NCBI GenBank assembly: GCA_964016885.1 | Contig: OZ024762.1 | Location: forward strand, 17,112,001 to 17,176,000 | Origin: Eledone cirrhosa | Lineage: Eukaryota | Direction: 5' to 3' | Length of the DNA stretch: 64,000 nucleotides | Shown here: in pieces, positions 3,217 to 63,901 of the stretch | Position numbering within the stretch: position 1 is the stretch's first letter | Layout: each line of letters starts with the position of its first letter | Translations under genes and position numbers: made by a program | The notes under the pieces: model-generated | What the model was told of the DNA's origin: nothing | Databases searched by the model: none | The model's input: only the letters and a program-made list of their open reading frames with translations

Positions 3217-3479
3217 CAAGCAAATTATAAACGTAAACATGTAAGTATGTTTTTGAAACAGTGCGCGAGTTTGAAATTAGAAATTAGAAATTATAAGCTT
3301 TCACCGTATTTTAGACTAAAGAAATTTCTAGCCTGATAGTGGGGTTTATAACCCTCGGAGAAATGGAAAAAGATGAGTGTTGACGGCAGCACTCATCTTT
3401 TTCCATTTCTCCGAGGGTTATAAACTCCACTATCAGGCTAGAAATTTCTTTAGTCTAAAATACGGTGAAAGCTTATAAT
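3217..3479. mobile_element. Fold-back element with ~93-bp arms (3290-3479) plus tail to (TA)n
   Basis: Near-perfect inverted repeat with a tiny loop at ~3383-3387; same asymmetric design as the ribozyme-bearing fold-backs, but no canonical core found. Confidence 0.75.
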
Positions 3480-4650: not shown

Positions 4651-5200
4651 GGTTTCTTATATAGGCACAAGGCCAGCAATTTGGGAGGAGAGTAAGGTCG
4701 ATTCAATCAACCCCAGTGCGTGACTGGTACTTTATTTTATTGACCCCGTAAGGATGAAAGGCAAAGTTAACCTCGGCGGGATTTGAACTCGGATCATAAA
4801 GGGCCGTAACTCTATTCTGTAAAACAGCGTCTGACCCTCTACCGATACTGCCAATCCACTGCCCTACATATATAATAATAATTGTTTCTACTTTAGGCAC
4901 AAGGCCAGCAATTACCACAGTACATTACTGGTACTTTATTTTATCGACCCCGTAAGGATGAAAGGCAAAGTTAACCTCGGCGGGATTTGAACTCAGAATG
5001 GCAAGGGCCGTAACCCTATGCGTCAAAGCATGGCGTCCGACCCTCTACTGATACTGGAACTCAGACCGTAAAGGGACGTAACTCTATGCGTCAAAGCATG
5101 GCGTCCGACCCTCTACCGACGCTGCCAATCCAATAATAATAATAATGGTTTCTGATTTAGGCACAAGGCGGAGGAAGGGAAAGTCGATTAAATTGACCCC
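4651..5200 (-). mobile_element. Cluster of Nin-domain tRNA-derived SINE family B copies
   Basis: Reverse complement has TGGCAGTATCGGTAG, GAGTTCAAATCCC and GCCTTTCATCCTTACGGGGTCGATAAAATAAAGTACCAG; two near-full and two partial copies. Confidence 0.9.
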
Positions 5201-8551: not shown

Positions 8552-8997
8552 TATAAAGTGCAAGGCAAGGGGTTATAATTCACTTCATTTATTCATAGTC
8601 GCTGTTATATATATTTCAGTGATAACTGTTATGTAATAGTTATGACCTCATCAGACAGCTAGGAGCTGAATAGACAAAACAGACCAATGTCACTGGTGCT
8701 TTGAGAAAGCAGTACCTGGGATATATCAATGAATTGAAACAACAAAAGTAAGTTTTATTTCTTTATGTTTTTTTTGGGTTTTTTCTGTTCAACTTCCAGC
8801 TTTTTTTATAAAAAAAAAAATATATATATATATATATTGTAATTTATTGTCGGAAATATACCAGTTATTTGTAATATTGATGTGTGAGTGTCTGTGTCGG
8901 TGAAATATAAACATATGCATCAAGTTCGAACACAAAGGAACCAAATTCCCACTGTCACTGCCCAAGTGAATTATAACCTGTTACCTTGCACTTTATA
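8552..8997. mobile_element. Element with ~34-bp terminal inverted repeats
   Basis: TATAAAGTGCAAGGCAAGGGGTTATAATTCACTT (8552-8585) versus AAGTGAATTATAACCTGTTACCTTGCACTTTATA (8964-8997). Confidence 0.6.
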
Positions 8998-9310: not shown

Positions 9311-9646
9311 GTGTGGGATGCTTAAAGCGTCCGTAAGCGGTAGGCCGTTTGAGCACTCGATGTTCTTACAGAGCAGAGTATAATATCACATAAGAAACGG
9401 AGAATCAGTGGTGCGACGAATTAAAATTTATTAGACACATCACAATCGTTTCTCTGGCGACCAACTCGAGGCACGATCGATGCGATGATCGAACCTGACT
9501 CTGAAATCGCAAGATCCTCAGATACGTCTTAATCTTTCGAAGCAGAGTTTCCACATCGTTCCTCGAACTGGTCGCCAGAGAAACGATTGTAATATGTCTA
9601 ATAAATTTTAATTCGTCACACGACCGATTCTCCGTTTCTTATGTGA

Positions 9647-9650
<4 letters not shown>
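9308..9650. mobile_element. PLE-like fold-back element with hammerhead
   Basis: ~95-bp imperfect arms (9384-9477 and 9555-9649), tail 9308-9383, (TA)n on both sides. Confidence 0.8.
9433..9529 (-). ncRNA. Type I hammerhead ribozyme with long stem II
   Basis: AGACGTAT CTGAGGA TCTTGCGAT..GTCGCCAGA GAAAC GATT GT(G/A) AT(G/A)TGTCT; 8-bp stem I; the partner arm has the GTA triplet. Confidence 0.65.
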
Positions 9651-10245: not shown

Positions 10246-10317
10246 TAAACATAATTGTTTCTTACACCTACAACAATTAAAAAAACAACAACAATATTTA
10301 AAACAGACAATAATAAT

Positions 10318-10506
10318 ATTTGTTTCTACTTTTGGCACAAGGCCAGCAAATACCCAGTGCATTACTGGTACTTTATTTTATCGACCCCGTAAGGATGAAA
10401 GGCAAAGTTAACCTCGGCGGGATTTGAATTCAGAATGGTAAGGGCCGTAACTCTATGCGTCAAAGCATGGCGTCCGACCCTCTACCGATACTGCCAATTC
10501 ACCGCC
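10318..10506 (-). mobile_element. SINE family B
   Basis: Near-identical to the other Nin-domain SINE copies. Confidence 0.9.
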
Positions 10507-11491: not shown

Positions 11492-13160
11492 ACCAAACTC
11501 CCACTGTCACTGCCTCCGTCCCTCCCGAATCTACCCACCAAACTCCCACAATCATTGCCTCCGTCTCACCCGCTCTCCCCACCAAACTCCCTCTGTCACC
11601 GCTTCCGTCTCTCCCGCTCTCCCCACCAAACTCCCACTGTCACTGCCTCCGTCCATTCCGCTCTACCCACCAAACTCCCACTGTCACTATCTACGTCCCT
11701 CCCGAATCTACCCACCAAACTCCCACTGTCATTGCCTCCGTCTCTCCCGCTCTCCTCACCAAACTCCCACTGTCACTGCCTCCGTCTCCCCGCTCTCCTC
11801 ACCAAACTCCCACTGTCACTGCCTCCGTCTCCCCGCTCTCCTCACCAAACTCCCACTGTCACTGCCTCCGTCTCTCCCGCTCTCCCCACCAAACTCCCAC
11901 TGTCACTGCCTCCGTCCCTCCAGCTCTCCCCACCAACTCCCACTGTCACTGCCTCCGTCTCTCCCGCTCTCCCCACCAAACTCCCACTGTCACTGCCTCC
12001 GTCTCCCCCGCTCTACCCACCAAACTCCCACTGTCACTGCCTCCGTCTCCCCCGCTATCCCCACCAAACTCCCACTGTCACTGCCTCCATCCCTCCCGAA
12101 TCTACCCACCAAACTTCCACTGTCATTGCCTCCGTCCATCCCGCTCTCCCTACCAAACTCCCACTGTCACTGCCTCCGTCTCTCCCGCTCTCCCCACCAA
12201 ACTCCCACTGTCACTGCCTCCGTCTCCCCCGCTCTCCCCACCAACTCCCACTGTCACTGCCTCCGTCCCTCCAGCTCTCCCCACCAACTCCCACTGTCAC
12301 TGCCTCCGTCTCCCCCGCTCTACCCACCAAACTCCCACTGTCACTGCCTCCGTCCATCCCGCTCTCCCCACCAAACTCCCACTGTCACTGCCTCCGTCTC
12401 CCCCGCTCTCCCCACCAACTCCCACTGTCACTGCCTCCGTCCCTCCAGCTCTCCCCACCAACTCCCACTGTCACTGCCTCCGTCTCCCCCGCTCTACCCA
12501 CCAAACTCCCACTGTCACTGCCTCCGTCCATCCCGCTCTCCCCACCAAACTCCCACTGTCACTATCTCCGTCTCCCCCGCTCTCCCCACCAAACTCCCAC
12601 TGTCACTGCCTCCGTCTCCCCCGCTCTCCCCACCAAACTCCCACTGTCATTGCCTCCGTCTCTCCCGCTCTCCCCAACAAACTCCCACTGTCACTATCTC
12701 CGTCTCCCCCGCTCTCCCCACCAAACTCCCACTGTCACTGCCTCCGTCTCCCCCGCTCTCCCCACCAAACTCCCACTGTCACTGCCTCCGTCTCTCCCGC
12801 TCTACCCACCAAACTCCCACTGTCACTACCTCCGTCTCTCCCGCTCTACCCACCAAACTCCCACTGTCACTGCCTCCGACCATCCCGCTCTCCCTACCAA
12901 ACTCCCACTGTCACTGCCTCCGTCCCTCCCGATATACCCACCAAACTCCCACTGTCACTGCCTCCGTCCCTCCCGATATACCCACCAAACTCCCACTGTC
13001 ACTGCCTCCGTCCCTCCCGATCTACCCACCAAACTCCCACTGTCACTGCCTCCGTCTCTCCCGATCTACCCACCAAACTCCCACTGTCACTGCCTCCGTC
13101 TCTCCCGATCTACCCACCAAACTCCCACTGTCACTGCCTCCGTCTCTCCCGATATACCCG
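11492..13160. repeat. ~44-bp C-rich minisatellite, about 38 copies
   Basis: Unit ACCAAACTCCCACTGTCACTGCCTCCGTCTCTCCCGCTCTCCCC; explains the 602-aa and 347-aa ORFs. Confidence 0.95.
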
Positions 13161-13233
13161 ACTATTTGACTAGCAAATAACCTCGTAAGGCTTTCTAGAC
13201 TTAGCTAGGACCTGTAACTATATATATATATAT

Positions 13234-13979
13234 TTATGAAAATAAACCAAAGAAGTCTTCAATACATCAAAAGTCTTTATTAGCCAACAATGTTGTATTT
13301 GTATTATTTTTATTTTTATTTTTATTTTTATTTTTATTTTTATTATTATTCTTATTTATATTTAAACTCTTAATAAGGGTTAGTTTGTGCTTCTATTGAT
13401 GGAAATGCGTATTGATATATATGTATATGTGTGTACATATATATGTATATATATATGTATATTGGGCCTTTTAACATTATTATTATTATCATTAGCAATT
13501 ATATTATATTATATTATATTATATTATATTATATTATATTATATTATATTATATTATATTATATTATATATAGTACAATAATACCCGCTCTATATCACCA
13601 ACTCTGTTTTAGCTCTAGTTTCTACATTGGACTATATTTGTAATATGGTTCAAAATGTTACTTACTTCCTTAGCAATTTTTACTTGATAATTTTTTATTT
13701 TTTATTTTCCCATGCTTTAATCTATGTACACTCCATATTCTTCTGAGTTTTCGGCTTGTATTGGCTGATAGTGCTTCTTATAGCTTTAATTGCCCTGATG
13801 AGTCCTTAATAGGACGAAACATTGTTGGCTAATAAAGACTTTTGATGTATTGAAGGCTTCTTTGGTTTATTTTCATAATTATTCGGCTCTGTTTAATTAC
13901 ATTCAGCTATACCTTTACTGTCATTTCTATAATACAAAGAGGGTGTTTAACTCCAACACACTCTAGTATTTCAATTCTT
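13234..13979 (+). mobile_element. PLE pseudo-LTR remnant with inverted 5' copy, inserted in (TA)n
   Basis: 13234-13294 is the reverse complement of 13818-13878; hammerhead and AATAAA inside; (TA)n on both sides. Confidence 0.8.
13788..13836 (+). ncRNA. Minimal type I hammerhead ribozyme
   Basis: GCC CTGATGA GTCCT-TAAT-AGGAC GAAAC ATT GTT GGC, followed by AATAAA. Confidence 0.85.
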
Positions 13980-14022: not shown

Positions 14023-14217
14023 AACGAAGGAAGTGTGGTAAGGAACCAGATGGACCATAACGCACCAGAGTACTCAATACTTAAGGTAGTAGTGTGGGTA
14101 ATAGGAACAAGTATATGACCCCGACGGCAGAGCTCAAGACGTTTCGACGGCTATTTCAGTCCAGAAATAGCCGTCGAAAAGGCTTGAGCTCTGCCGTCGG
14201 GTCATACTTTTTCCTAT
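14023..14217. mobile_element. P1 fold-back element
   Basis: Arms 14101-14157 and 14164-14217; tail on the left; TA-rich flanks. Confidence 0.85.
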
Positions 14218-16744: not shown

Positions 16745-18365
16745 GACAGTCAACGCGATCAGTCGCATATTTTGGCGTGGGAGACTATTTATTAAGATGA
16801 ATACTATCTCCAACAGTAATGCCACAACTACAGTCAGGTTGAATAACTGGTTATTCTTCTAACTATCCCTTCTGAAGACACCTTTTATTCGAATTCGTAG
16901 AGATATCCGACTAAATACATAATTCATTTTACAAGGATTTGCTACAAACAGCATGGCTGAACACAACATCAACAAAAAAATTAAGGAAGTACCGAAGACG
17001 AACAACAAGGAAGGTAATCAAACTTTATTTAGTTGTAGTTGCAGAAGAAACCGAAATTATAAATCGCATTTCTCTTGCAGTTGCGAACTTAATAATGATT
17101 TATTTAATTGTTATAAAATGGCAAAAAACAATCCCTCCATTGGCTATATGAACAGAATGAAGCTACACTGGGACGAAATGCACCCAGAGCTAAATTATTT
17201 CACAGGGAAACAATTACGCCAACAAGCGATGTTTGTTGAACGTAAAAATAAGATAAATATTATTAATTGTAAGTCCCCCACAACAAACATGTTATCAACA
17301 ACACGTGCTACAGGTCGCCATGCTACTAGACTTCCTAGCAGCCAGGTCGAACAGCGTCTTGAAACAACTATGCCTGTAAGAAACTTGACACCACCTGTAA
17401 GAAACTTGACACCACCTGTACCATCTAAGTCTACCTCGAATGCTGGGGAAAACACTATCGATAATAATAATAATCGAAGAAATTTGACACCACGTGTACC
17501 ATCCAAGTCTACCTCGACTATTGTGGAAAATACTATCGATAATTGTTTCTACTTTTGGCACAAGGCCAGCAATTATCCCAGTGCATTACTGGTACTTTAT
17601 TTTATCGACCCCGTAAGGATGAAAGGCAAAGTTAACTTCGGTGGGATTTGAACTCAGAATGGCAAGGGCCGTAACTCTGTACATCAAAGCATGGCGTCCA
17701 ACCCTCTACTGCTATCGATAATGATAATCAAAAGTATAAACAATTGAAAATTTCCCTCAACGAAATCTGCCAGAGAGAAATTAACTCATGTATAAATATC
17801 TCTCTTGCTGAACGTGTTAAAACGACAATGTTGCGCAAAACAAAACAGTGGCTCACAATGTGTTTGCTGTGCCTGTCCTAACACCAAAGTTTGGAATACT
17901 CAATTGGACGATAGACGAAATCCGAGCAGTTGATGTTGGAAAAATACTGAACAACACCGGAAACTTCCACATCAACAGTGACATAGACCGCCTTTACTTG
18001 AAACGTAAGCAGGGAGGCAGAGGCCTAACATCAGTCCAGACAACATTTGAATGTCGCATCATATCTCTCCGACAAGTTTGCAGATCCAGTATCCAAGATA
18101 CACCTTCAGCTTCATACCCATCATTATTGGAGCTACAGATTATATACCAACCCACTTGGACCAAAGTATGACTGAACTTGGATTTGTGGACAAAGAGAGC
18201 AGCTCCCTAATTCATAGACTACAAATGACTGCGATAGCTGGCACCTTCAAAATTTGCAAACCATTCTTGCGATTCAAAGGATGACAATTTCTTTTCTTTT
18301 TACAACCTTGCCACCAGGAAGGTGGCCGGTGAAAAATGTACTCGAAATTAAGCGAAAGAGAGACA
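16745..18365 (+). pseudogene. Deleted R4/Dong-clade RLE non-LTR retrotransposon
   Basis: GYMNRMKLHWDE..KQLRQQA (N-terminus), AVPVLTPKFGILNWT..SDIDRLYLKRKQGGRGL (post-RT), FIPIIIGA (RLE C-terminus); (CATA)n at both ends; SINE B inserted at 17541-17712. Confidence 0.75.
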
Positions 18366-19444: not shown

Positions 19445-19446
<2 letters not shown>

Positions 19447-19948
19447 GACGGCGATGAATTTGTTTTGCGAGGTTTTTGATATGAAATCGTGTGTCGAAAC
19501 AAATATTGTTATACTTAGGGAGGGTCATATTGTTGTAATAATATTGCCAGAAATAATAACAGAACACACTCACTGTTTGGTTGGTTTTCGCTTCTGTATC
19601 TTTTATATCTCCACAGTTAATTCATTCGGTCCTCAATGTTTACCATTGACTGACCAATGGTAAAAAATACAGATATAACATAGATATAAACACAATACAA
19701 CAGGAGGAACATAATAACACCACTGGTGATGTTGCAGATGTGCAACGAAAGAACTTTGTTAGACTATATATATGTGTTTATATCTATATTATATCTGTAT
19801 TTTTGACCGTTGGTCAGTCAATGGTAAACATTGAGGACCGAATGAATTAACTGATATAAAAGATACAGAAGCGAAAACCAACCAAACAGTGAGTGTGTTC
19901 TGTTATTATTTCTGGGAATATTACAACAATATGACCCTCCCCAAGTAT

Positions 19949-19955
<7 letters not shown>
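19445..19955. mobile_element. PLE-like family P3 fold-back with ~190-bp arms
   Basis: Arms 19502-19693 and 19773-19955; spacer has CTGGTGA TGTTGCA-GATG-TGCAAC GAAAG AA CTT (19723-19756); tail 19445-19501. Confidence 0.85.
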
Positions 19956-19983
<28 letters not shown>

Positions 19984-20470: not shown

Positions 20471-21380
20471 CGCGGTGAATTGGCAGTATCGGTAGAGGGT
20501 CGGACGCCATGCTTTCCAGCATAGTTACGTCCCTTTACGATCTGAGTTCAAATCCCGCCGAGGTTGACTTTGCCTTTCATCCTTACGGGGTCGATAAAAT
20601 AAAGTACCAGTAATGCACAAACAATTATCATATTTTCAATGAAAAATACTGCCTATAATTTTCAAATAATTTTCAAAATAACCAAGAATTTGGAGTGATT
20701 TTATACCACGAGGCGGACTGACCCTTAAGCAGACCTGCCGACGTGTAAAAACCTAAACAGGGAGTACCATGTAAAAACGTGTCCCCAAAACGAGGAGAAA
20801 TGAGGCAAAATGGGGAGATTTTACATAATTGTTGCTACTTTAGGCACAAGGCCAGCAATTACCCAGTACATTACTGGTACTTTATTTTATCGACTCCGTA
20901 AGGATGAAAGGCAAAGTTAACCTCGGCGGGATTTGAACTCAGACTGTAAAGAGACGTAACTATGCTAGAAAGCATGGCGTCCAACCCTCTACCGATACTG
21001 CCGATTCACATAATGAAAGCTATACCTATTTTGACAAGAGAAGACATCTCTCACCCACCCCAAAGTGGGTGCGTGATCTCGCCGACGGACGGGGAGAGTT
21101 GGTAGGTCAGCTTAAGTTTTAATCATGGTGGTGGCGTATAAATTTGATTTACTTCCATAAACAAACATTATTAATTTATTTCTCACTTAGGCGCTGGATT
21201 GGCAGTATTGGTAGAGTGTCGGATGCCATGCTTTGGCGCATAGAGTTACGGCCCTTGCCATTCTGAGTTCAAATCCCGCCGAGGTTAACTTTGCCTTTCA
21301 TCCTTACGGGGTCGATAAAATAAAGTACCAGTAATACACTGGGTAATTGCTGGCCTTGTGCCTAACGTAGAAACAATTAA
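20471..21380. mobile_element. Three SINE family B copies (+ 20471-20620, - 20827-21008, + 21191-21380)
   Basis: Nin-domain core and A/B boxes. Confidence 0.9.
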
Positions 21381-21599
21381 TTTATTTCTCACTTAGAATA
21401 ACCATTATTTCTTTATCATTATTTAGAAATTATTATTCAAAGCATGTAACTTCCTCTCTGATTATTAAGGTGGTGTTTGCAATATAATTTGTGGGAAATA
21501 TTTAGATAGATATAAACACTTTATCACTTTCGTTACTATATTTCCAATGTAAATTAATGACAGGGTTTTCAAATAATTTTTTAGAGTAATAAATGATGT

Positions 21600-22005: not shown

Positions 22006-22613
22006 TTCGCACGAATACCAAATTGAAGACAGCGAGTAATATAAAGAACTGATGTTTGGAACATAACTTAACAAAGGTTCTTACATAAAATTGTCATGGA
22101 AAGTTTTTAGATAAATATAAACACTTTAACACTATCGTTACTATATTTTCAATGAAAAACACTGTCTTTGATTTCCAAATAATTTTAGAAATAATCAAGA
22201 ATTTGGAGTGATTTAGTAATATAATTAACTCTCTGATTGGAACATAACTTAACAAAGGTTATTACATAAAATAGTTTTTAGAGAAATATATAAACTTTAA
22301 TACTTTCGTTATTATATTCTTAATAAAAGACATTGTCTTTTTAAATAATTAAAAAAATTAATGAAGAATTTGGAGAAATTTAATAATATAACTAACTTTC
22401 TCATTATTAAGCTGGTGTTTGGAACATAACTTAATAAAGGTTCTTACATAGAACTATGACAGAATGTGTTTAGATAAATATAAATACTTCAAAATAAACA
22501 GTTTTGTATCACAAAACCAGGGGAGGTTTCAAACGTTTTGGTATAAAAAAAAGGCTTTATTTTATCAACCCCGTAAGAATGAAAGGCAAAGCAAAGCTCA
22601 ACAGGATTATAAC

Positions 22614-24375: not shown

Positions 24376-24563
24376 AAGTTTATCCCGGGTTCAATCAGGG
24401 GTAACCACAGTAAGTAAGGTACTCAATACAAAGCAAAGTATAAATATTTAATATAGAAACGGCTTCTACAGGACTAGAACTGTTTCATTCGGGAGAAATC
24501 TTCAGGGCTTCCTGATGATTTCTCACGAATGAAACAGTTCTAGTCCTGTAGAAGCTTTTCTAT
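24376..24563. mobile_element. PLE-like family P2 fold-back with a hammerhead core on each arm
   Basis: GCTTC CTGATGA TTTC-TCAC-GAAT GAAAC AG-TTCTAGTC-CT GTA GAAGC (24507-24555); mirrored at 24462-24506. Confidence 0.85.
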
Positions 24564-24819
24564 ATGAATGGAATAACAACAACACCCAAACAAACAACAC
24601 TGACCTAAGAGAAGTATAAATAAATAAATAAATAAATAAATACATACACAAGCACAATAACAACACACACATATAAACACACACTAGTAAACTAAGATAG
24701 AATACATTAACCAATACACAGTCACCCAAACAAGAACACACATCAAACAAAACACTATACACACACGCAAACGCAGAGAAGACAAAAAAAAAAAAAGAAT
24801 AAACAAATAAATAAATAAA

Positions 24820-25113
24820 TAAACAGACTAAATAAAGATGGCGTAAGCATACAATGCAACGGGAGGAAACACTGACGATGTTGCAGATTTGCAACGAAAG
24901 AACTTTGATAGACTATATATATAAAAGTTTGTGTCTATATTGTATCTGTATTTTTTGACCGTTGGTCAGTCAATGGCAACATTGAGGACCGAATAAATTA
25001 AATTAACCGATATAAAAGACACAAGCGAAAACCAACCAAAAAAGTGAGTGTGTTCTGTTTTTAATTCTGGCAATATTATTACACAAATATGACCCTCCCC
25101 AAGTATAACAATA
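24820..25113 (+). mobile_element. P3 copy with hammerhead core
   Basis: CTGACGA TGTTGCA..TGCAAC GAAAG AA CTT at 24872-24905; ends AAGTATAACAAT into (TA)n. Confidence 0.8.
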
Positions 25114-25131
25114 TATATAAATATATATATC

Positions 25132-27670: not shown

Positions 27671-28974
27671 CAGGGTGGGGCATAATTCCTGTTACAAAGT
27701 TTTAAATCAATTTAAAAATACATTATGCTGCTAATATAACTAATATATTTGTATCAAATCCATGCACTATAACCATATTAACTATTTTTGAGAACATTAC
27801 GCCATTAACAATTTGCAATGTCCATAGAATTGAAAAGAAAGTTTATAATAGTGAAGCATGAAAAAGGCCTGACTCCACCCGAGATATTTAAACTGGGGAA
27901 AATTCTTAAGATCAATAGAATGTTGATCAAAAGGACAATCGATCGATTTAAGGAAACTTCCTCGACCAAAGACAGACCTCAATCCGGACGCCCTCGCACC
28001 TCAAGAAAATCAAAACTCATTAAAAGTGTGAGGGAAAAAATAAAGCATAATCCAAGAAGGTCCATGAGAAAAATGGCAGAAGAAGCAGAAACATCGCCGA
28101 GAACTATGCGGATGATATGTCGAGATGATCTGGGGATGTCACCCTATAAGTTCCAAAAGAGGCAGCTTCTTTCTGCAGCCTCAATTGAAAAGAGGCTCTC
28201 CAGAAGTAAACTGTTATTGAACCGTATCAAGGATGACACGCTGCAAAACATCATCTTTACAGATGAGAAGTTATTCACTGTGCAGCAGTCTCACCATCAT
28301 CAAAATGATGGAGTACTTGCAAAAAGTTTCAAATCAATTCCTTCAAGTGTAGGAAAAGTGTTCAGAACACAGAAACCAGCACCAGTGATGCTTTGGGCAG
28401 CCATTTCTGAAAGAGGGAAGTCTCCTCTGATTTTTGTGCCTCAAGGAGTTAAAATTAACAAAGAACTTTGTATAAAGGATATTTTGGAAGGAGCACTGAT
28501 GCCATGGTGCGTATCTGTTTATGGCGATGACATGTGGACTCTCCAACAAGATGGAGCAACGAGCCACACTGCTCGCGTAACACAATAGTGGTGTAGAGAC
28601 CATTGTCCTGCATGGATCAGTAAGAAGAGTGGCCTCCCACATCACCAGATCTCAACACTCTCAATTTTTCTTTATGGTCAATTCTTGAGAGTGAAGCCTG
28701 CTCTACTCCTAGCCAAAATATTGAAACTCTAAAATCAAAACTGAATAAAGTATTGGGAGAAAATACCCATGGAAACTGTTCGTGCAGCCATCGAAGACTT
28801 TCCTAGAAGTCTTCGAGCAATAGTGAGAGCTAGGGGAAAGCATTTCGAATAAATTTTTGTGCAGTTATTTAATAGTATATTACTTACTATTTGTTGAAGT
28901 CAGATCTTGAAATAAATGTTTTTTTCAAGAACTATTTGCATTTTATTTTGTAACAGTTTTTATGCCCCACCCTG
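27671..28974 (+). mobile_element. Full-length Tc1/mariner DD37D (maT) transposon
   Basis: TA flanks; TIR CAGGGTGGGGCATAA..CTGTTACAAA / TTTGTAACAG..TTATGCCCCACCCTG; 1304 bp. Confidence 0.95.
27818..28852 (+). pseudogene. DD37D transposase, disabled
   Basis: SGRPR, IIFTDEKLF, QQDGATSH, WPPTSPDLNTLNF; 37-residue spacing to the third catalytic position (D to N); stop at 28586-28588 and later frameshifts. Confidence 0.9.
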
Positions 28975-33795: not shown

Positions 33796-33843
<48 letters not shown>

Positions 33844-33854
33844 TGTGTATAAAA

Positions 33855-34038
33855 TAATTGTTTCTACTTTAGGCACAAGGCCAGCAATTACCCAGTGCAT
33901 TACTGGTACTTTATTTTATCGACCTCGTAAGGGTGAAAGACAAAGTCAACCTCGGCGGGATTTGAACTCAGATCGTAAAGGGACGTAACTATGCTGTAAA
34001 GCATGGCGTCCGACCCTCTACCGATACTGCCACTCCAC
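33855..34038 (-). mobile_element. SINE family B
   Basis: Nin-domain SINE; further partial copy at 34677-34795. Confidence 0.9.
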
Positions 34039-34562: not shown

Positions 34563-34837
34563 CCATTTTCTACCATTCAACCAGTGAAATACTCAAAACC
34601 ATTGAAAAGCCATTTTGAAAAAAGATTTTTCCTTCATGTAAAACATCTTAGAAAAAAACTAGTGTGTTTTTATTATAATTGTTTCTACATTTGGCACAAG
34701 GCCAGCAAATACTCAGTGTATTACTGGTACTTTATTTTATTGACCCCGTAAGGATGAAAGGCAAAGTTAACCTCGGCGAGATTTGAATTCAGAATGATAT
34801 TTTATTATAATGATAGTGAAACTTGGTAATGTTAACG

Positions 34838-39522: not shown

Positions 39523-39916
39523 GGGCGGTGGATTGGCAGTATCGGTAGAGGGTCGGACGCCATGCTTTCCAGCATAGTTACGTCCCTTTACGATCTGAAT
39601 TCAAATCCCGCCGAGGTTGACTTTGCCTTTCATCCTTACGGGGTCGATAAAATAAAGTACCAGTAATGCATTGGGTAATTGCTGGCCTTGTGCCTAAAGT
39701 AGAAACAATTATTATTGGTTTCTTATATAGGTACAAGGCCAGTCGAAGAAAGTCGATTAAATCGACCCCAGTGCGTGACTGGTACTTTATTTTATCGACC
39801 CCATAAGGATGAAAGGCAAAGTTAACATCGGCGGGACTTGAACTCAGATCATAAAGGGCCGTAACTCTGTGATGCAAAGCATAGCATCCGACCTTCTACC
39901 GATACTGCCAATCCAC
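39523..39916. mobile_element. Tail-to-tail pair of SINE family B
   Basis: + copy 39523-39710 and - copy 39716-39916. Confidence 0.9.
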
Positions 39917-42299: not shown

Positions 42300-43230
42300 A
42301 CATAAGTACCTTTGTTAAGTTACATTCCAAACACCAGACTGACAACGAGAAAATTATTATGACCAAATCCCTCCAAATTCCTGAATATTTTCGAAATTAT
42401 TTGAAAATCTTCGACAGTGGTTTTCATTAGAAATATGTTAATGAAAGGGTTAAAGTATTTATATTTATCTAAAAACCTTCCATCATAATTTTATGTAAGA
42501 ACGTTTGTTAAGTTATGTTCCAAACACCAACAGTGACATTCGTTCGAAATATGGTAATGAAAGGGTTAAAATATATTTATCTAAAAACCTTCCATCACAA
42601 TTTTATGTAAGAACCTTTGTTAAGTTATATTCCTAACACCAGCCCTGTTAGTTAAAAAAAAATGTATATTTGAAAGTGTTTATATTTATCTAAAAAACTT
42701 TGTCATAATTTACGTAAGAACCTTTGTTAAGTTATGTCCCAAACACCAACCCTGGTAGTTAAAAAAAAATGTATATTTGAAAGTGTTTATATTTATCTAA
42801 AAAACATTCTGTCATAATTTACGTAAGAAACTTTGTTAAGTTATGTTCCTAACACCAACCCTGGTAGTTAAAAAAAAATGTATATTTGAAAGTGTTTATA
42901 TTTATCTAAAAAACTTTCTGTCATAATTTACGTAAGAACCTTTGTTAAGTTATGTCCCAAACACCAACCCTGGTAGTTAAAAAAAAATGTATATTTGAAA
43001 GTGTTTATATTTATCTAAAAAACATTCTGTCATAATTTACGTAAGAAACTTTGTTAAGTTATGTTCCTAACACCAACCCTGGTAGTTAAAAATAAATGTA
43101 TATTTGAAAGTGTTTATATTTATCTAAAAAACATTCTGTCATAATTTACGTAAGAACTTTTGCTTGGTTAAGGTGCAAAGACCAAGTTAATGAATAAGTT
43201 AGTTATATTACTAAACCCTTCCGAATTCTT
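42300..43230. repeat. ~118-120-bp tandem array from a dispersed repeat also at 21400-22490
   Basis: TAAGAACCTTTGTTAAGTTATG..CCAAACACCA units; AAAGGGTTAA ends suggest a piggyBac-like origin. Confidence 0.7.
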
Positions 43231-46759: not shown

Positions 46760-46986
46760 CGAAGGAAATGTGGTAAGGAACCAGATGGACCATACCGCAC
46801 CAAAGTACTCAATACTTAGGGTAGTAGAGTGGGTAATAGGAACGAGTAGGACCCCGACGGCTGAGCTCAAGCCGTTTCGACGGCTAATTCTGGACTGATA
46901 TATATAACATATATACATATATATGAGTCCAGAATTAGCCGTCGAAACGGCTTGAGCTCAGCCGTCGGGGTCCTACTCGTTCCTAT
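46758..46986. mobile_element. P1 fold-back with a TA-rich loop
   Basis: Perfect arms 46836-46896 and 46926-46986. Confidence 0.9.
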
Positions 46987-47662: not shown

Positions 47663-47699
<37 letters not shown>

Positions 47700-47702
<3 letters not shown>

Positions 47703-48114
47703 GATATTAAATAAATGGAAACTATATTTATAAAACCATATTTATTTCATTATATATATTTCAGGGATATCATATTAACAATATGCTATGCCTTCCTCAG
47801 ACAAAATACAATATAGACAGTTTTATAGATAAATAGATTTGACATACCGTCAACTTTTCAAATACAAGTCGATGTTGAACGGTATGTCAAATCTATTTAT
47901 CTATAAAACTGTCTATATTGTATTTTGTCTGAGGAAGGCATAGCATATTGTTAATATGATATCCCTGAAATATATATAATGAAATAAATATGGTTTTATA
48001 AATATAGTTTCCATTTATTTAATATCGTAAATATACTCCAAATACTTGTCGAGTGCTTTTATATCAGTTATAAATATTTACTAGTTGTAACCCAACAATT
48101 TTAAATATAACTTT

Positions 48115-48189: not shown

Positions 48190-48591
48190 GGAGGTGAGTT
48201 TTATTGTAGTACAATAAAGCAATGCAGATATCAGATAAGAAGCACTCTACAGTTTGTAGGACTGGAGTATACATAATATAAGATCAAAAGATGGTTAAAG
48301 GAGTTCCATGTATTTTATTATGCGCATTTCAAAAACAAACATCATCATGCAATAATATTTGTGTTTTCATCAGATAAAACAGGAGAACATGAGATGAGGG
48401 CTAAAAAACACTTGTGGATAGTGCAGTTGATTTAAAACTGAACTATCCACAAGTGTTTTTTAGCCTTCATATCATGTTCTCCTGTTTTATCTGATGAAAA
48501 CACAAATATTATTGCATGATGATGTTTGTTTTTGAAATGCGCATAATAAAATACATGGAACTCCTTTAACCATCTTTTGATCTTATATTAT
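48188..48591. mobile_element. PLE-like fold-back with ~155-bp arms and two hammerheads
   Basis: GTTTTAT CTGATGA [long stem II] GAAAT GCGC ATA ATAAAAT at 48484-48552, mirrored at 48312-48380; tail 48188-48273. Confidence 0.9.
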
Positions 48592-48632
48592 ATATATATA
48601 TATTAGAAAGTGAACAACACAAAATGTAATTA

Positions 48633-49895: not shown

Positions 49896-50199
49896 GGGGG
49901 GGGGAGTGACAAATTACTCAATATAATAATGTAGACTATAATGATATTATGACTCAGTACTGTTGAGGTTTCGTGTTTAAGTCTGAATCAAACATGGCCG
50001 ACAGTCTAGTGAATCGTTGGAAAACATCCCAAATTAGAAACAGACATTGGCGGGAAGAACCACTCCTGGGCTTCAAACTGGGGCAGGGGCAGTGGAAGCC
50101 TTTCTGAATCGGGGTTCGGGCCAAATTTGGTTAATTTAGTTGTAGTGATTGGTTTAACTGTTATTATCAAATATCAACCAAGATATATAAAAAATTAAA

Positions 50200-50481
50200 A
50201 ATGCCGTAGACATACAATTCAATGGGAGGAAACATAATAGCACCACTGATGATGTTGCAGATGTGCGACGAAAGAACTTTGATAGACTATATATATATAT
50301 ATATATATTTATATCTGTATTTTTAACCGCTGGTCAATCAATGATAAACATTGATTGCCAAATAAATTAACTATGGAGATATAAATGATACAGAAGCGAA
50401 AACCAACCAAACCGTGAGTGTGTTCTGTTATTATTTCTGGCAATATTATTACAACAATATGACGCTCCCCAAGTATAACAA
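50200..50481 (+). mobile_element. P3 copy with hammerhead core
   Basis: CTGATGA TGTTGCA-GATG-TGCGAC GAAAG AA CTT at 50246-50279. Confidence 0.8.
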
Positions 50482-52582
50482 TATGACGCTCCTCAAGTAT
50501 AACAATATGACCCTCCCCAAGTATAACAATATGACCCTCTCCAAGTATAACAATATGACCCTCCCCAAGTATAACAACATGACTCTCCCCAAGTATAACA
50601 CTATGACCCTTCCCAAGTATAACAACATGACCCTCCCCAAGTATAACACCATGACCCCCCCAAGTATAACAACATGACCCTCTCCAAGTATAACAATATG
50701 ACCCTTCCCAAGTATAACAACATGACCCTCCCCAAGTATAACAACATGACCCTCCCCAAGTATAACAACATGACCCTCCCGAAGTATAACACCATGACCC
50801 CCCCAAGTATAACAACATGACCCTCTCCAAGTATAACAATATGACCCTCTCCAAGTATAACAATATGACCCTTCCCAAGTATAACAATATGACCCTTCCC
50901 AAGTATAACAACATGACCCTCCCCAAGTATAACAATATGACCCTCCCCAAGTATAACAACATGACTCTCCCCAAGTATAACACTATGACCCTTCTCAAGT
51001 ATAACAACATGACCCTCCCCAAGTATAACACCATGACCCCCCCAAGTATAACAACATGACCCTCTCCAAGTATAACAATATGACCCTCTCCAAGTATAAC
51101 AATATGACCCTTCCCAAGTATAACAACATGACCCTCCCCAAGTATAACAACATGACCCTCCCCAAGTATAACATGACCCTCCCGAAGTATAACACCATGA
51201 CCCCCCCAAGTATAACAACATGACCCTCCCCAAGTATAACACCATGACCCCCCCCAAGTATAACAACATGACCCTCTCCAAGTATAACAATATGACCCTT
51301 CCCAAGTATAACAACATGACGCTCCCCAAGTATAACAACATGACCCTCCCCAAGTATAACAACATGACCCTCCCGAAGTATAACACCATGACCCCCCCCC
51401 CCCAAGTATAACAACATGACCCTCTCCAAGTATAACAATATGACCCTCTCCAAGTATAACAATATGACCCTTCCCAAGTATAACAATATGACCCTTCCCA
51501 AGTATAACAACATGACCCTCCCCAAGTATAACAATATGACCCTCCCCAAGTATAACAACATGACTCTCCCCAAGTATAACACTATGACCCTTCTCAAGTA
51601 TAACAACATGACCCTCCCCAAGTATAACACCATGACCCCCCCAAGTATAACAACATGACCCTCTCCAAGTATAACAATATGACCCTCTCCAAGTATAACA
51701 ATATGACCCTTCCCAAGTATAACAACATGACCCTCCCCAAGTATAACAACATGACCCTCCCCAAGTATAACATGACCCTCCCGAAGTATAACACCATGAC
51801 CCCCCCAAGTATAACAACATGACCCTCTCCAAGTATAACAATATGACCCTCTCCAAGTATAACAATATGACCCTTCCCAAGTATAACAATATGACCCTTC
51901 CCAAGTATAACAACATGACCCTCCCCAAGTATAACAATATGACCCTCCCCAAGTATAACAACATGACCCTCCCGAAGTATAACAACGTGACCCTCCCCAA
52001 GTATAACAACATGACCCTCCCGAAGTATAACAACATGACCCTCCCCAAGTATAACAACATGACCCTCCCCAAGTATAACAATATGACCCTCCTCAAGTAT
52101 AACAATATGACCCTCTCCAAGTATAACAATATGACCCTCCTCAAGTATAGCAACATGACCCTCTCCAAGTATAACACTATGACCCTCCCCAAGTATAACA
52201 ATATGACCCTCCCCAAGTATAACAATATGACCCTCCCCAAGTATAACAACATGACCCTCCCCAAGTATAACAATATGACCCTCCTCAAGTTTAACAATAT
52301 GACCCTCTCCAAGTATAACAATATGACCCTCCTCAAGTATAGCAACATGACCCTCCCCAAGTATAACACTATGACCCTCCCCAAGTATAACACTATGACC
52401 CTCCCCAAGTATAACAACATGACCCTCCCGAAGTATAACAACATGACCCTCCCCAAGTATAACAACATGACCCTCCCAAGTATAACAACATGACCCTCCG
52501 AAGTATAACAACATGACCCTCCCCAAGTATAACACTATGACCCTCCCCAAGTATAACACTATGACCCTCCCCAAGTATAGCA
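50455..52582 (+). repeat. 24-bp minisatellite, about 88 copies, derived from the P3 arm terminus
   Basis: Unit AACAA(C/T)ATGACCCTCCCCAAGTAT is single-copy at the ends of the P3 arms (~19927-19952 and ~25083-25110). Confidence 0.95.
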
Positions 52583-53991
52583 ATAAAAAAACTTCGATAT
52601 GTGATAAACATAACATGTATATATGTCGTAGTGTATATACAAATAGATGAGTGTTTGTAGTTTGGGGAGAAAAATATAATTATTGGGGGGCCATGGGGCA
52701 GGGCATGTCCCACCCTTCTAGACTATGGACCCCCTATCCTCCCTGGCCATCTCAGGTTTACCACACCTGTGAGGTACAACATGGCGGAATGTCTCACCTT
52801 AACTGTGTGATTTATAGATATAAAATATACAGAAACAGACACACACACAGGCACACATACACACATACATAGATACAGGCATACACACACACAGGCATAC
52901 ACACACAGGCATACACACACACACACAAGCATACATACACACACACAAGCATACATACACACACAGGCATACAGAGACACACACACAGACACAAACACAC
53001 ACACACACACAGGCACAAACACACACACACACACAGGGATACAAACAGACATACACACACACAGGCACACACACACAGGGATACAGACAGACAGACACAC
53101 ACACAGGCATACACACACACATACACACACACAGGGATACAGACAGACACACACACACACACATAGGCATCCACACACACATACACAGGGAGACAGACAG
53201 ACAGACACACACAGGCACACACACACACATACACAGGGATACAGACAGACAGACACACACACACAGGCATACACACACACATACACAGGGATACAGATAC
53301 ACACACACACACACAGGCATACACACACACATACACAGGGATACAGATACACACACACACACACAGGTATACACACACACACACAGACATACAGACATAC
53401 AAACACACACACATGCATTCACAGACATACACACACACACAAGCATACATACAGGCACACACACACAGACATAGAGATACACACACCCAATCACAAACAC
53501 ACACACACACATGCACACACAAAAGCGCATGACCCCCCCCACACACATACACTTAAACAGACAGACATACACACACACAACACACAAAAACATGCACACT
53601 CACTCATACACACACAAACACATACACACACAGAACCACACATCGACACACGCACACATATATACACACTCACGTACACCCTCAAAGCAGTTCCCCGCAC
53701 ACACACACACACACAGCCACACAACCACATACACAGAAACATACACACAAACAACATAGAAACCCCACATACGCACACATAAAAAACAAACAAAGAATAA
53801 GAAATTAAGAAACAAGGAAAGGAAAGGGAAAAAGAAAAAAAGATAAGACCTTTTGAACGTTTAGCCAAGGGAAATAACTCTCAGAATACAATGAAAGGGA
53901 GATAATTGGAGATAAAATATTGTGTGGTGGTTAATATAACGATATGTGAGATAAACAAACCTATAAATATACACGATAGACGAATTACATA

Positions 53992-54060
<69 letters not shown>

Positions 54061-54063
<3 letters not shown>

Positions 54064-54265
54064 GGAAATTGTTTAACCCCGACGGCAGAGCTCAAGCTGT
54101 TTCGACGGCTATTTCTGGACGCCGACTGAGTCCAGAAATAGCCGTCGAAACGGATTGAACTCTGCCGTCGGGGTAAACATTTTCCTATTACCACTCTACT
54201 ACTGTAAGTATTAAGTACTCTGGTGCGTGCGTTATGGTCCATCTGGTCCTTACCACACTTCCTTC

Positions 54266-54269: not shown

Positions 54270-54327
<58 letters not shown>

Positions 54328-54332
<5 letters not shown>

Positions 54333-54563
54333 TATTAATAAACGGAAACTATATTTATAAAATCATATTTATTTTATTATATATATTTCAAGGGTACCAA
54401 AATTTTGGTACCCTTGAAATATATATAATAGAATAAATATGATTTTATAAATATAGTTTCCGTTTATTAATATTATTGATATTATACTCCAGAAGAAATC
54501 CGAAGAGTGCTTCGAATCTGTAAATAAATTTGTTGAGTAGCCAACAAATTAAATAACTCTTTG

Positions 54564-59682: not shown

Positions 59683-59889
59683 AAGTTTTAATATAGAAGA
59701 GATTCTACAGGACTAGAACTGTTTCATTCTTTAGAAATCATCAGGAATCTCTGAGATTCCTGATGATTTCTAAAGAATGAAACAGTTCTAGTCCTGTAGA
59801 ATCTCTTCTATATTAAAACTTTTATACTCTGCTATGTATTGAGTACCTTACTTACTGTGGTTACCTCCGATTCAACCCGGAATAACGTA
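59683..59889. mobile_element. P2 perfect palindrome with two complete hammerheads
   Basis: GAGATTC CTGATGA TTTCT-AA-AGAAT GAAAC AG-TTCTAGTC-CT GTA GAATCTC at 59753-59805, mirrored on the minus strand; palindrome 59683-59821. Confidence 0.9.
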
Positions 59890-61615: not shown

Positions 61616-61817
61616 ATAGGTAAAGATTCAGGACCCCGACGGCTGAGCTCTGGCAGTTTCGACGGCTCGATCCGAACTGTTCAGATCTAGCTGTCGAAAC
61701 GGCCAGAGCTCCACCGTCGGGGTCCTGACTCTTTACCTATTACCCACTCTACTACCCTAAGTATTGAGTACTCTGGTGCGTTATGGTCCACCTGGTTCCT
61801 TACCACACCTCCTTCGT

Positions 61818-62516: not shown

Positions 62517-62727
62517 CGTAGGTCCCGGGTTGAGTCGGGATAACCACAGTAAGTAAGGTACTCAATACATGGCAGAGTAAACATTTTTTATTTTATAGAA
62601 GGAGCTTCTACAGGACTAGTACTGTTTCATTCAGATGAAATCTTCAGGAAGCTGGGTGTCTTACCCAGCTTCCTGAAGATTTCATCTGAATGAAACAGTA
62701 CTAGTCCTGTAGAAGCTCCTTCTATAA

Positions 62728-62730
<3 letters not shown>
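62517..62730. mobile_element. P2 fold-back with two complete hammerheads
   Basis: AGCTTC CTGAAGA TTTCA-TC-TGAAT GAAAC AG-TACTAGTC-CT GTA GAAGCT at 62667-62717; perfect arms 62590-62657 and 62663-62730. Confidence 0.9.
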
Positions 62731-62765
<35 letters not shown>

Positions 62766-62840: not shown

Positions 62841-62966
62841 GGAGGAGGTTATAGTTCACTTGAAGCATTGTGTAATGAGGTATAAACGTTTGAATATGTA
62901 TAATAAAGCCAAAACAATGCAGGTTTGGACATACCTGCATTGTTTTGGCTTTATTATACATATTCA

Positions 62967-62969
<3 letters not shown>
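62841..62969. mobile_element. Short fold-back with tail, in (TA)n
   Basis: Arms 62888-62924 and 62933-62969. Confidence 0.7.
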
Positions 62970-63004
<35 letters not shown>

Positions 63005-63377
63005 CGTAAGTATGCATGTCTATTTTTCTTAATTTTAAAATTTATTTTGAAGTGGCCACCTTCACGGCGGCAAGGTTGTAAAGATTGGCAAACTCCCGTC
63101 ATCCCTGTACAATAATTTATCTTAAGAAAGTTTTACAGATTAAGGTTACAGATACGCGGCCATTTCTAGATTAAGAATTCAGACAGTTTCTCAAACATTT
63201 TCAAACAAGGAACACACATATATATTCCCCTACCTTCTTTTACGGAACCCGAGACACTCCTTTGTAGAACCCTCTTTAGGGACCACTGAATTAAGGACCT
63301 GAGGTTTTTTCTCCACAAATTCAGGTTCAGTCATACTTGGTCTAGGAATGTTGCTATACATCACATAACTTCAATAA

Positions 63378-63901
63378 TAATTGTTTCTACTTTTGGCACA
63401 AGGCCAGCAAATACCCAGTGCATTACTGGTACTTTATTTTATCGACCCCGTAAGGATGAAAAGCAAAGTCAACCTAGCTTCAATGATAATGATTTCTTAT
63501 ATAGGCACAAGGCCAGCAATTTTGAGGGAGGGGAAAGTCGATTAAATTGACCCCAGTGCATGACTGGTACTTTATTTTATCGACCCCGTAAGGATGAAAG
63601 GCAAAGTTAACCTCGACGGGATTTGAACTCAGATAATAAAGGGCGTAACTCTATGCTGCAAAGCATGGCGTCCGACCCTCTACCGATACTGCCAATCCAC
63701 CGCCCTCATAGCTTCAATAAGAATTGTTTCTACGTTAGGCACAAGGCCAGCAAATACCCAGTGCATTACTGGTACTTTATTTTATCGACCCCGTAAGGAT
63801 GAAAGGCAAAGTTGACCTTGGCGGGATTTGAACTCAGAATGGCAAGGGCCGTAACTCTATACGTCAAAGCATGGCGTCCGACCCTCTACCAATGCTGCCA
63901 A
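63378..63901 (-). mobile_element. Three tandem SINE family B copies
   Basis: 63378-63475 (partial), 63492-63705 and 63722-63901. Confidence 0.9.

Follow-up and report, generated by a model that had tools for sequence, protein, structure and literature searches.

The minisatellite array and its host element P3

The window analysed, a stretch of 64,000 nt from contig OZ024762.1 of Eledone cirrhosa, contained at nt 50453–52578 (+ strand) an array of head-to-tail units of about 24 nt, a length within the 10–100 nt of minisatellite units. Cutting at AAGT(A/T)T delimited 89 units belonging to 24 variant types, and TRF reported the array as nt 50453–52583 with a period of 24, 89.2 copies and 90% matches. 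The last unit was followed by an incomplete terminal unit, AGCAAT (nt 52579–52584, +), the G of which is common to units 72 and 80. The unit pattern had 83 matches in the window with up to 3 mismatches allowed (0.00 expected), 80 of them within the array; outside the array the unit occurred as a single copy at nt 19925–19948 (+), 25083–25106 (+) and 19511–19534 (−). Two of these single copies had been named in an earlier sequence-only reading and are real, although the positions given there, 19955 and 25113, mark where the AACAAT behind each unit ends; the third, in the left arm of the fold-back at nt 19503–19956, was absent from it.

Unit 1 was the terminal unit belonging to a dispersed element of about 290 nt, designated P3. 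At this locus the P3 body, delimited by alignment with other copies and by a rise in read depth at about nt 50195–50200, extended from nt 50195 to 50484 (+), up to the second copy of the 8-nt sequence AACAATAT; it was pseudo-LTR-like, 5′-truncated and here without an inverted arm. Its part upstream of the array (nt 50214–50476) was 86% identical to nt 19692–19948 and 79% identical to nt 24830–25106, and the 260–280 nt preceding the array were 79–90% identical to the sequence preceding the single-copy units. The first of these other copies was a head-to-head fold-back (nt 19445–19956) consisting of a 58-nt tail (nt 19445–19502, −), a left arm (nt 19503–19688) and a right part (nt 19692–19956, with the core described below at nt 19723); it possessed one unit per arm, the tail on one arm, and (TA)n on both sides. 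The third P3 copy (nt 24830–25114, +) had one unit, the 5′ repeat of which was changed to ACAAATAT, and was followed by AT-rich/(AT)n sequence. With 89 units counted here and one unit at the P3 ends elsewhere in the window, the proposal that the terminal 24 nt had been amplified about 88-fold directly after the P3 body was confirmed.

Penelope-like elements (PLEs) are described, in the available text of two reports, as having inverted pseudo-LTRs, an optional tail of 30–40 nt and microsatellite targets (PMC8557442, PMC3846280). P3 showed all of these, namely an inverted copy, an optional tail and a (TA)n target in the copy at nt 19445–19956, together with tail and (AT)n loose ends in sequencing reads. 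In an anole PLE, the open reading frame starts at helix II of the ribozyme and the tail lies between two internal RT start sites (available part of PMC11167929). Like the pseudo-LTR relics in the portions available of PMC4209133, PMC8557442, PMC3846280 and PMC11167929, P3 has a head-to-head inverted copy, an optional tail, (TA)n targets, a very high copy number and an ATG at the start of helix II; the P3 tail of 58 nt differs from the 30–40 nt given there, and a 24-nt array is not among the PLE features given in those portions. In the three copies, the ATG at helix II opened only 24–27 codons before a stop, which is too short to be searched as a continuing PLE frame. Inspection by eye of the 109 stop-to-stop frames of at least 120 aa in the window recognised no PLE frame, and no RT gene or RT/GIY-YIG frame was linked to P3 within the 64 kb. 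Based on core boxes, inverted copy, tail and (TA)n as compared with the published marks, P3 is likely a non-coding relic of a PLE pseudo-LTR, which agrees with the nature first suggested for the host element.

A motif resembling the minimal hammerhead ribozyme was located at nt 50246–50282 (+), comprising CUGAUGA, one bulged U, a 6-bp helix II closed by G-C, GAAA, a 2-bp helix III with an AA loop and a 2-bp helix I. In the P3 copies the core sits 202–211 nt before the unit. The CUGANGA box was exact in 2 of 3 copies (CUGGUGA in the copy at nt 19723), while GAAA, the bulged base and the G10.1-C11.1 pair were present; helix II had 6 of 6 pairs, and helix I had 2 pairs, a mismatch and then 1 pair, in all three copies. 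According to the available text of PMC4209133, minimal hammerheads of PLEs have the bulged base, G10.1-C11.1 and a large helix II, with a helix I normally of 4–5 bp in metazoan PLEs but of 2 bp in D. virilis, and palindromic positions 15.2-16.2 and loop 3. The P3 core resembles them in its core boxes, bulged base before helix II, G10.1-C11.1 and 6-bp helix II, and its helix I may correspond to the 2-bp helix I of the D. virilis variant. Its positions G15.2-C16.2 are complementary; unlike in those PLEs, its loop 3 (AA) is not palindromic and its cleavage triplet would be CUU (PMC4209133, same portion). Rfam gave nothing at gathering score across the 64-kb window, and 8 weak matches in nt 49900–50520, none of them to a hammerhead family, which were taken as chance. 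The P3 ribozyme is therefore referred to here as a putative one, a likeness to minimal hammerheads. The array had been described as the end of a ribozyme element; the host element does have a hammerhead-like core, but the array starts 180 nt downstream of the core end and is not part of it.

The array units themselves were ribozyme-free, no hammerhead core match being found inside nt 50453–52578. Animal non-LTR retrozymes, as described in part of a preprint (bioRxiv 10.64898/2026.07.22.740005), and P3 appear alike in being non-coding, hammerhead-bearing and PLE-derived, with tandem repeats involved; in retrozymes, however, the ribozyme lies in every tandem unit, whereas the unit repeated here is 24 nt and has none, and the array as a retrozyme was rejected because no core lies inside the units. 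Expansion driven by hairpins was likewise rejected, since three units folded to 0 kcal/mol on either strand. The minus strand had 140 runs of at least 3 G, so that quadruplex-aided instability is possible. A coding role was discarded as well, the long frames through the array being a by-product of the 24-nt period and shifting frame. The array is most likely without function.

Growth of the array by DNA-level duplication

Compared with the single-copy unit, the 78 full-length units (the 11 units with length changes being left out of the count) carried 100 substitutions, which represented only 12 distinct changes, one of them shared by 39 units. In 5000 simulations of independent errors, at least 45 distinct changes arose and at most 10 were shared; in 5000 simulations of the stricter model allowing one change per site, there were at least 19 distinct changes and at most 14 shared. 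The variants were confined to local domains, with the F type occurring only in units 9–57, T15 only in units 7–61, and the CCTCCTC type in unit 2 and units 69–79. Units 1 and 2 have in common a private G12 that the family lacks. The ancestral unit was kept in 7 units and no derived change was fixed in all, for which reason the first duplication cannot be dated after the insertion.

At a higher order, the variant string revealed a block of 25 units, the first copy of which comprised units 8–32 (nt 50621–51213, +) and the second copy, of 599 nt, units 33–57 (nt 51214–51812, +), with 22 of the 25 units identical between the two. They contained an exact repeat of 431 nt (nt 50798–51228 and 51397–51827) and differed in 3 units, by two C-run lengths and one substitution; further partial copies differed again. 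The longest repeated run of variants was 17 units, versus a maximum of 5 in 500 shuffles. The 599-bp higher-order duplication reported from the sequence is thus real, and expansion by unequal exchange, put forward at the same time, is backed by the shared variants and the nested block duplications.

These findings show that the array expanded at the DNA level, through duplication of units and blocks that already carried mutations, a local growth also typical of transposon-derived minisatellites. DNA-level duplication of mutated units gives shared variants, domains and nested blocks, and repeated copying of one RNA template is excluded for the growth because of them. A telomerase-like product would consist of units from one template with independent errors, whereas here 12 shared changes and a block duplication were observed.

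P3 ends in sequencing reads and the origin of the array

Four of 8 matching sequencing runs, which represented a related organism (best share of words 0.25), were aligned to nt 49905–50510 at 80% likeness; no RNA run was among the 8 listed, which carries no information on expression. P3 was very abundant, with 6756 contigs in run X1 and with 352,894 and 387,391 RAD reads in runs X6 and X7, respectively; the unique flank at nt 49905–50072 had a depth of 0 in the aligned runs, so these counts come from other P3 copies and not from this locus. The depths at the matching position in unit 1 versus unit 2 were 3896 versus 72 (X6) and 3854 versus 84 (X7), and the share reaching unit 2 was 2.3% in the X1 contigs and 0 in X4, unit shares being rough where RAD reads are concerned because such reads sample P3 copies unevenly. 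Reads leaving the element at nt 50484 into the tail or (AT)n numbered 3214 (X6) and 3162 (X7). Single-unit P3 ends are the rule. In metagenome scans, neither a 29-nt pattern from the element end nor a 27-nt pattern from the arm gave any locus (0 each).

As to P3 ends with two or more units at other loci, which the sequence-only reading had called for, up to about 2% of the reads over unit 1 reached unit 2, with their flanks unseen and their placement ambiguous. Among the unit-2 reads, 45 of 73 (X6) and 49 of 87 (X7) had an A at unit position 21, which is absent from all full-length units of the array, and most unit-2 reads carried a C that would fit unit 1 better if the reads were single-unit; this hints at independent duplications at other loci. 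On the other hand, 156 and 141 reads fitted two places, so misplacement is possible, and the depth in the last bin fell as if reads stopped at AACAATAT (0.87 and 0.86 versus 0.89).

The unit is bounded by two copies of AACAATAT 24 nt apart, the 5′ copy of which was located at nt 50453–50460 (+) by direct-repeat comparison of the P3 copies. No direct repeat at a spacing of 10–80 nt in this copy was longer than AACAATAT, which held first place here and shared it with others in two further arms; TTATATCT is another 8-nt repeat. Since the tailed arm has both copies of AACAATAT too, the repeat is encoded by the element. It was broken in the copy at nt 25083, which belongs to a P3 subfamily with ACAAATAT in place of AACAATAT that made up 37–39% of the reads (at nt 50454–50455). 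In this subfamily the bounding repeat is cut to 5 nt, making it a natural control for any duplication model.

According to the part of PMC3389668 available, 23% of human minisatellites derive from transposons, and flanking repeats of 5–10 bp or an incomplete last unit are marks of the accepted birth models (Haber-Louis, Taylor-Breden). The array possessed both, AACAATAT occurring twice and AGCAAT closing the array, and its unit was single-copy in other copies of the element, as seen at all 3 other ends within the window and in about 98% of the reads. It shares with transposon-derived minisatellites of the Alu-derived type a unit of 10–100 nt from a dispersed element, a bounding repeat of 5–10 nt, an incomplete last unit and local duplication of units and blocks; it differs in that the parent is a PLE-type relic and not Alu or L1, in the position of the unit at the 3′ end of the element, and in its length of 89 copies, which is long (PMC3389668, same part). 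As also stated there, the two slippage models account for the birth of no more than 6% of the repeats that arose from transposons in humans, which counts against slippage here.

Taken together, the array is probably a minisatellite made from the last 24 bases of a likely PLE relic, grown by duplication at the DNA level and likely begun by slippage between the two copies of AACAATAT. The course of events would be as follows. A P3 copy would have inserted here with one terminal unit, as the other copies and the reads suggest; mispairing of the 8-nt repeats 24 nt apart would have produced a dimer by replication or repair slippage, according to the Haber-Louis model; slippage, conversion and unequal exchange then enlarged the array, with point changes and C-run length changes accumulating and being copied along, as the shared variants of the local domains show; and a late exchange duplicated the 25-unit block, as the variant string shows. 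Replication slippage had been given as an equally viable origin beside telomerase-like seeding, and turned out to be the better supported of the two.

The two ends of the insertion bear on this alternative. An A-rich junction followed the array (nt 52583–52596, +). By sequence comparison it may be either a tail remnant or the right-hand copy of ATAAAAAA in a target-site duplication of 8 nt, the candidate left half of which lies at nt 50187–50194 (+). ATAAAAAA abuts both ends of the insertion, and about 1% of random junction pairs reach 8 nt. The tail-like remnant noted before did match tail positions 27–36 at 9 of 10 nt, but the match is mostly a run of A that 2% of random 15-mers of the window equal in score, and a target-site duplication is an equally good reading of the junction. 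A tail remnant would mean that the RT passed through the site; with a target-site duplication, the copy would lack a tail and terminate at the likely RT start. The host sequence around the insertion occurred only once in the window. Immediately before P3, nt 50115–50190 formed part of another repeat, which had high summed contig depth in X1 but a single occurrence in the window.

PLE RTs are close relatives of telomerase RT. A PLE RT might have begun at the 3′ AACAATAT, extended its cDNA over 24 nt and brought the cDNA end back to the start site one or a few times, in the way that LINE RTs use short 3′ repeats and telomerase its template, before continuing into the body, with the rest made by DNA-level turnover; such seeding is judged unlikely. 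The 3′ AACAATAT, where tail-less copies join (AT)n, is by analogy likely to be the RT start, and the geometry therefore fits RT realignment as well as slippage. At the arm/tail boundary, to which an internal RT start has been mapped in the anole PLE (available part of PMC11167929, from which the start in P3 is transferred), AACAATAT provides an alignment repeat that delimits the template at the presumed start. The polarity is also that expected, the body being followed by short copies on the side made first; the junction may represent a tail-less end flanked by a target-site duplication of 8 nt; a second unit is reached by about 2% of reads, over half of which carry a variant that this array lacks; and template slippage on LINE 3′ repeats has been described (available text of PMC3747384). 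Against this, a tail remnant is an equally good reading of the junction and would imply that the RT passed through the site, no RT gene was linked, and the slippage units of LINEs are 3–5 nt and not 24 (PMC3747384, same text). The divergence gradient looked for along the array was missing (Spearman −0.07, p 0.49). One unit was present at all 3 other P3 ends in the window and in about 98% of reads, none of 18 fold-back structures checked had a terminal array of the P3 kind, and the 2% of reads was no higher than the window background, in which 10 complex minisatellites in 64 kb, this array included, give a 290-nt stretch a chance of about 4% of holding one. Moreover, a recurrence of about 2% would not separate slippage from RT seeding, because slippage could occur at this site in any copy that keeps the repeat intact. 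As to the subtelomeric location that had been proposed as a sign, there were no runs of 3 or more TTAGGG or TTAGG in the window, and 11 kb of ordinary sequence followed the array. No test backed the telomerase-like seeding, and none contradicted it: later DNA-level turnover erases the seed, the repeat does lie at the likely RT start, and the 2% of reads may include short duplications of independent origin.

The 3′ tandem tails of LINEs and SINEs (TGTAA in UnaL2, TAA in the I element) and telomerase repeat addition resemble the situation here in that repeats lie at the likely cDNA start and an alignment repeat bounds the unit, but the LINE/SINE tails have units of 3–5 nt and are the normal end of the family, whereas the present unit is 24 nt, about 98% of reads are single-unit and the genealogy is DNA-level (PMC3747384, as far as available). 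Among the papers listed in a literature search, none was seen to report repeat addition by PLEs with such a unit size, and the supplements of PMC4209133 and PMC8557442 may list the P3 family. The more general proposition that an animal PLE RT realigns on an 8-nt repeat at an internal start and adds a 24-nt unit more than once, in the manner of telomerase, in about 1–2% of insertions, the dimers seeding minisatellites like the present one, is rather improbable. If true, it would mean that the retroelement RTs nearest to telomerase are able to add repeats and have left a mark of this in a genome, and a first duplication made by RT would bear on how telomerase arose. The P3 family suits such testing, since it has very many copies, ends with and without a tail, a subfamily in which the repeat is broken, and an alignment repeat where the RT likely starts. 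For now, the array adds another transposon-derived minisatellite to a genome that has plenty of them, and would serve at most as a marker.

Much less probable than RT seeding is an assembly duplication accounting for some of the array length, chiefly for the exact 431-nt repeat. The exactness of that repeat and the want of an aligned run covering the locus are compatible with it, but the two blocks differ in 3 units, the partial copies show further differences, and no join error could generate 24 variant types. That a processive telomerase-like RT wrote the whole 2.1-kb array at once is barely credible, for in spite of fixed unit length and boundaries at the element end, one template would give identical units with independent errors and not 12 shared changes, domains and a 25-unit block duplication, the window has no telomeric repeats, and whole-array synthesis followed by complete later turnover collapses into RT seeding with DNA growth.

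Repeat landscape of the window

Origin from a dispersed repeat is also indicated for two of the nine other complex minisatellites, namely a 109-mer array and the start of a 44-mer array. The 109-nt unit (6.5 copies, nt 42452–43162) matched a dispersed repeat at nt 22050–22522, 20624–20701 and 21501–21579 with 77–92% identity over about 77 nt. The 44-nt array (38 copies, nt 11492–13151) started inside sequence that is single at nt 8906–8962, only the first 23 nt of the unit matching there. Just downstream of it lay inverted arms (nt 13230–13294 and 13818–13882) about 520 nt apart, and beside the right arm was a well-formed hammerhead-like core (nt 13795–13819) with a 5-bp helix II and GAAAC.

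Matches resembling the hammerhead core numbered 17 in the window, versus 1.12 expected. Many different short fold-backs were present, for example at nt 3290–3479, 9383–9649, 14101–14217, 24448–24568, 46836–46986, 47694–48035, 48268–48596, 54061–54188, 54318–54486, 59690–59815, 61616–61740, 62589–62731 and 62881–62976. Most of them abutted (AT)n at one end and passed into unrelated sequence at the opposite one, and several possessed hammerhead-like cores. The collection likely consists of Penelope-derived relics of several families, which are common in the window.

Among other elements, a stop-free frame of 259 aa at nt 27809–28588 (+) resembles a Tc1/mariner transposase, and broken coding pieces at nt 16923–18290 (+) resemble the two ends of a non-LTR retrotransposon. 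The latter pieces were interrupted by a SINE-like repeat of 100–200 nt, which had more than 10 copies in the window, several in inverted pairs, for example at nt 4712–5146, 10312–10501, 17539–17709, 20480–21386, 33839–34038, 34672–34796, 39528–39916 and 63373–63901.
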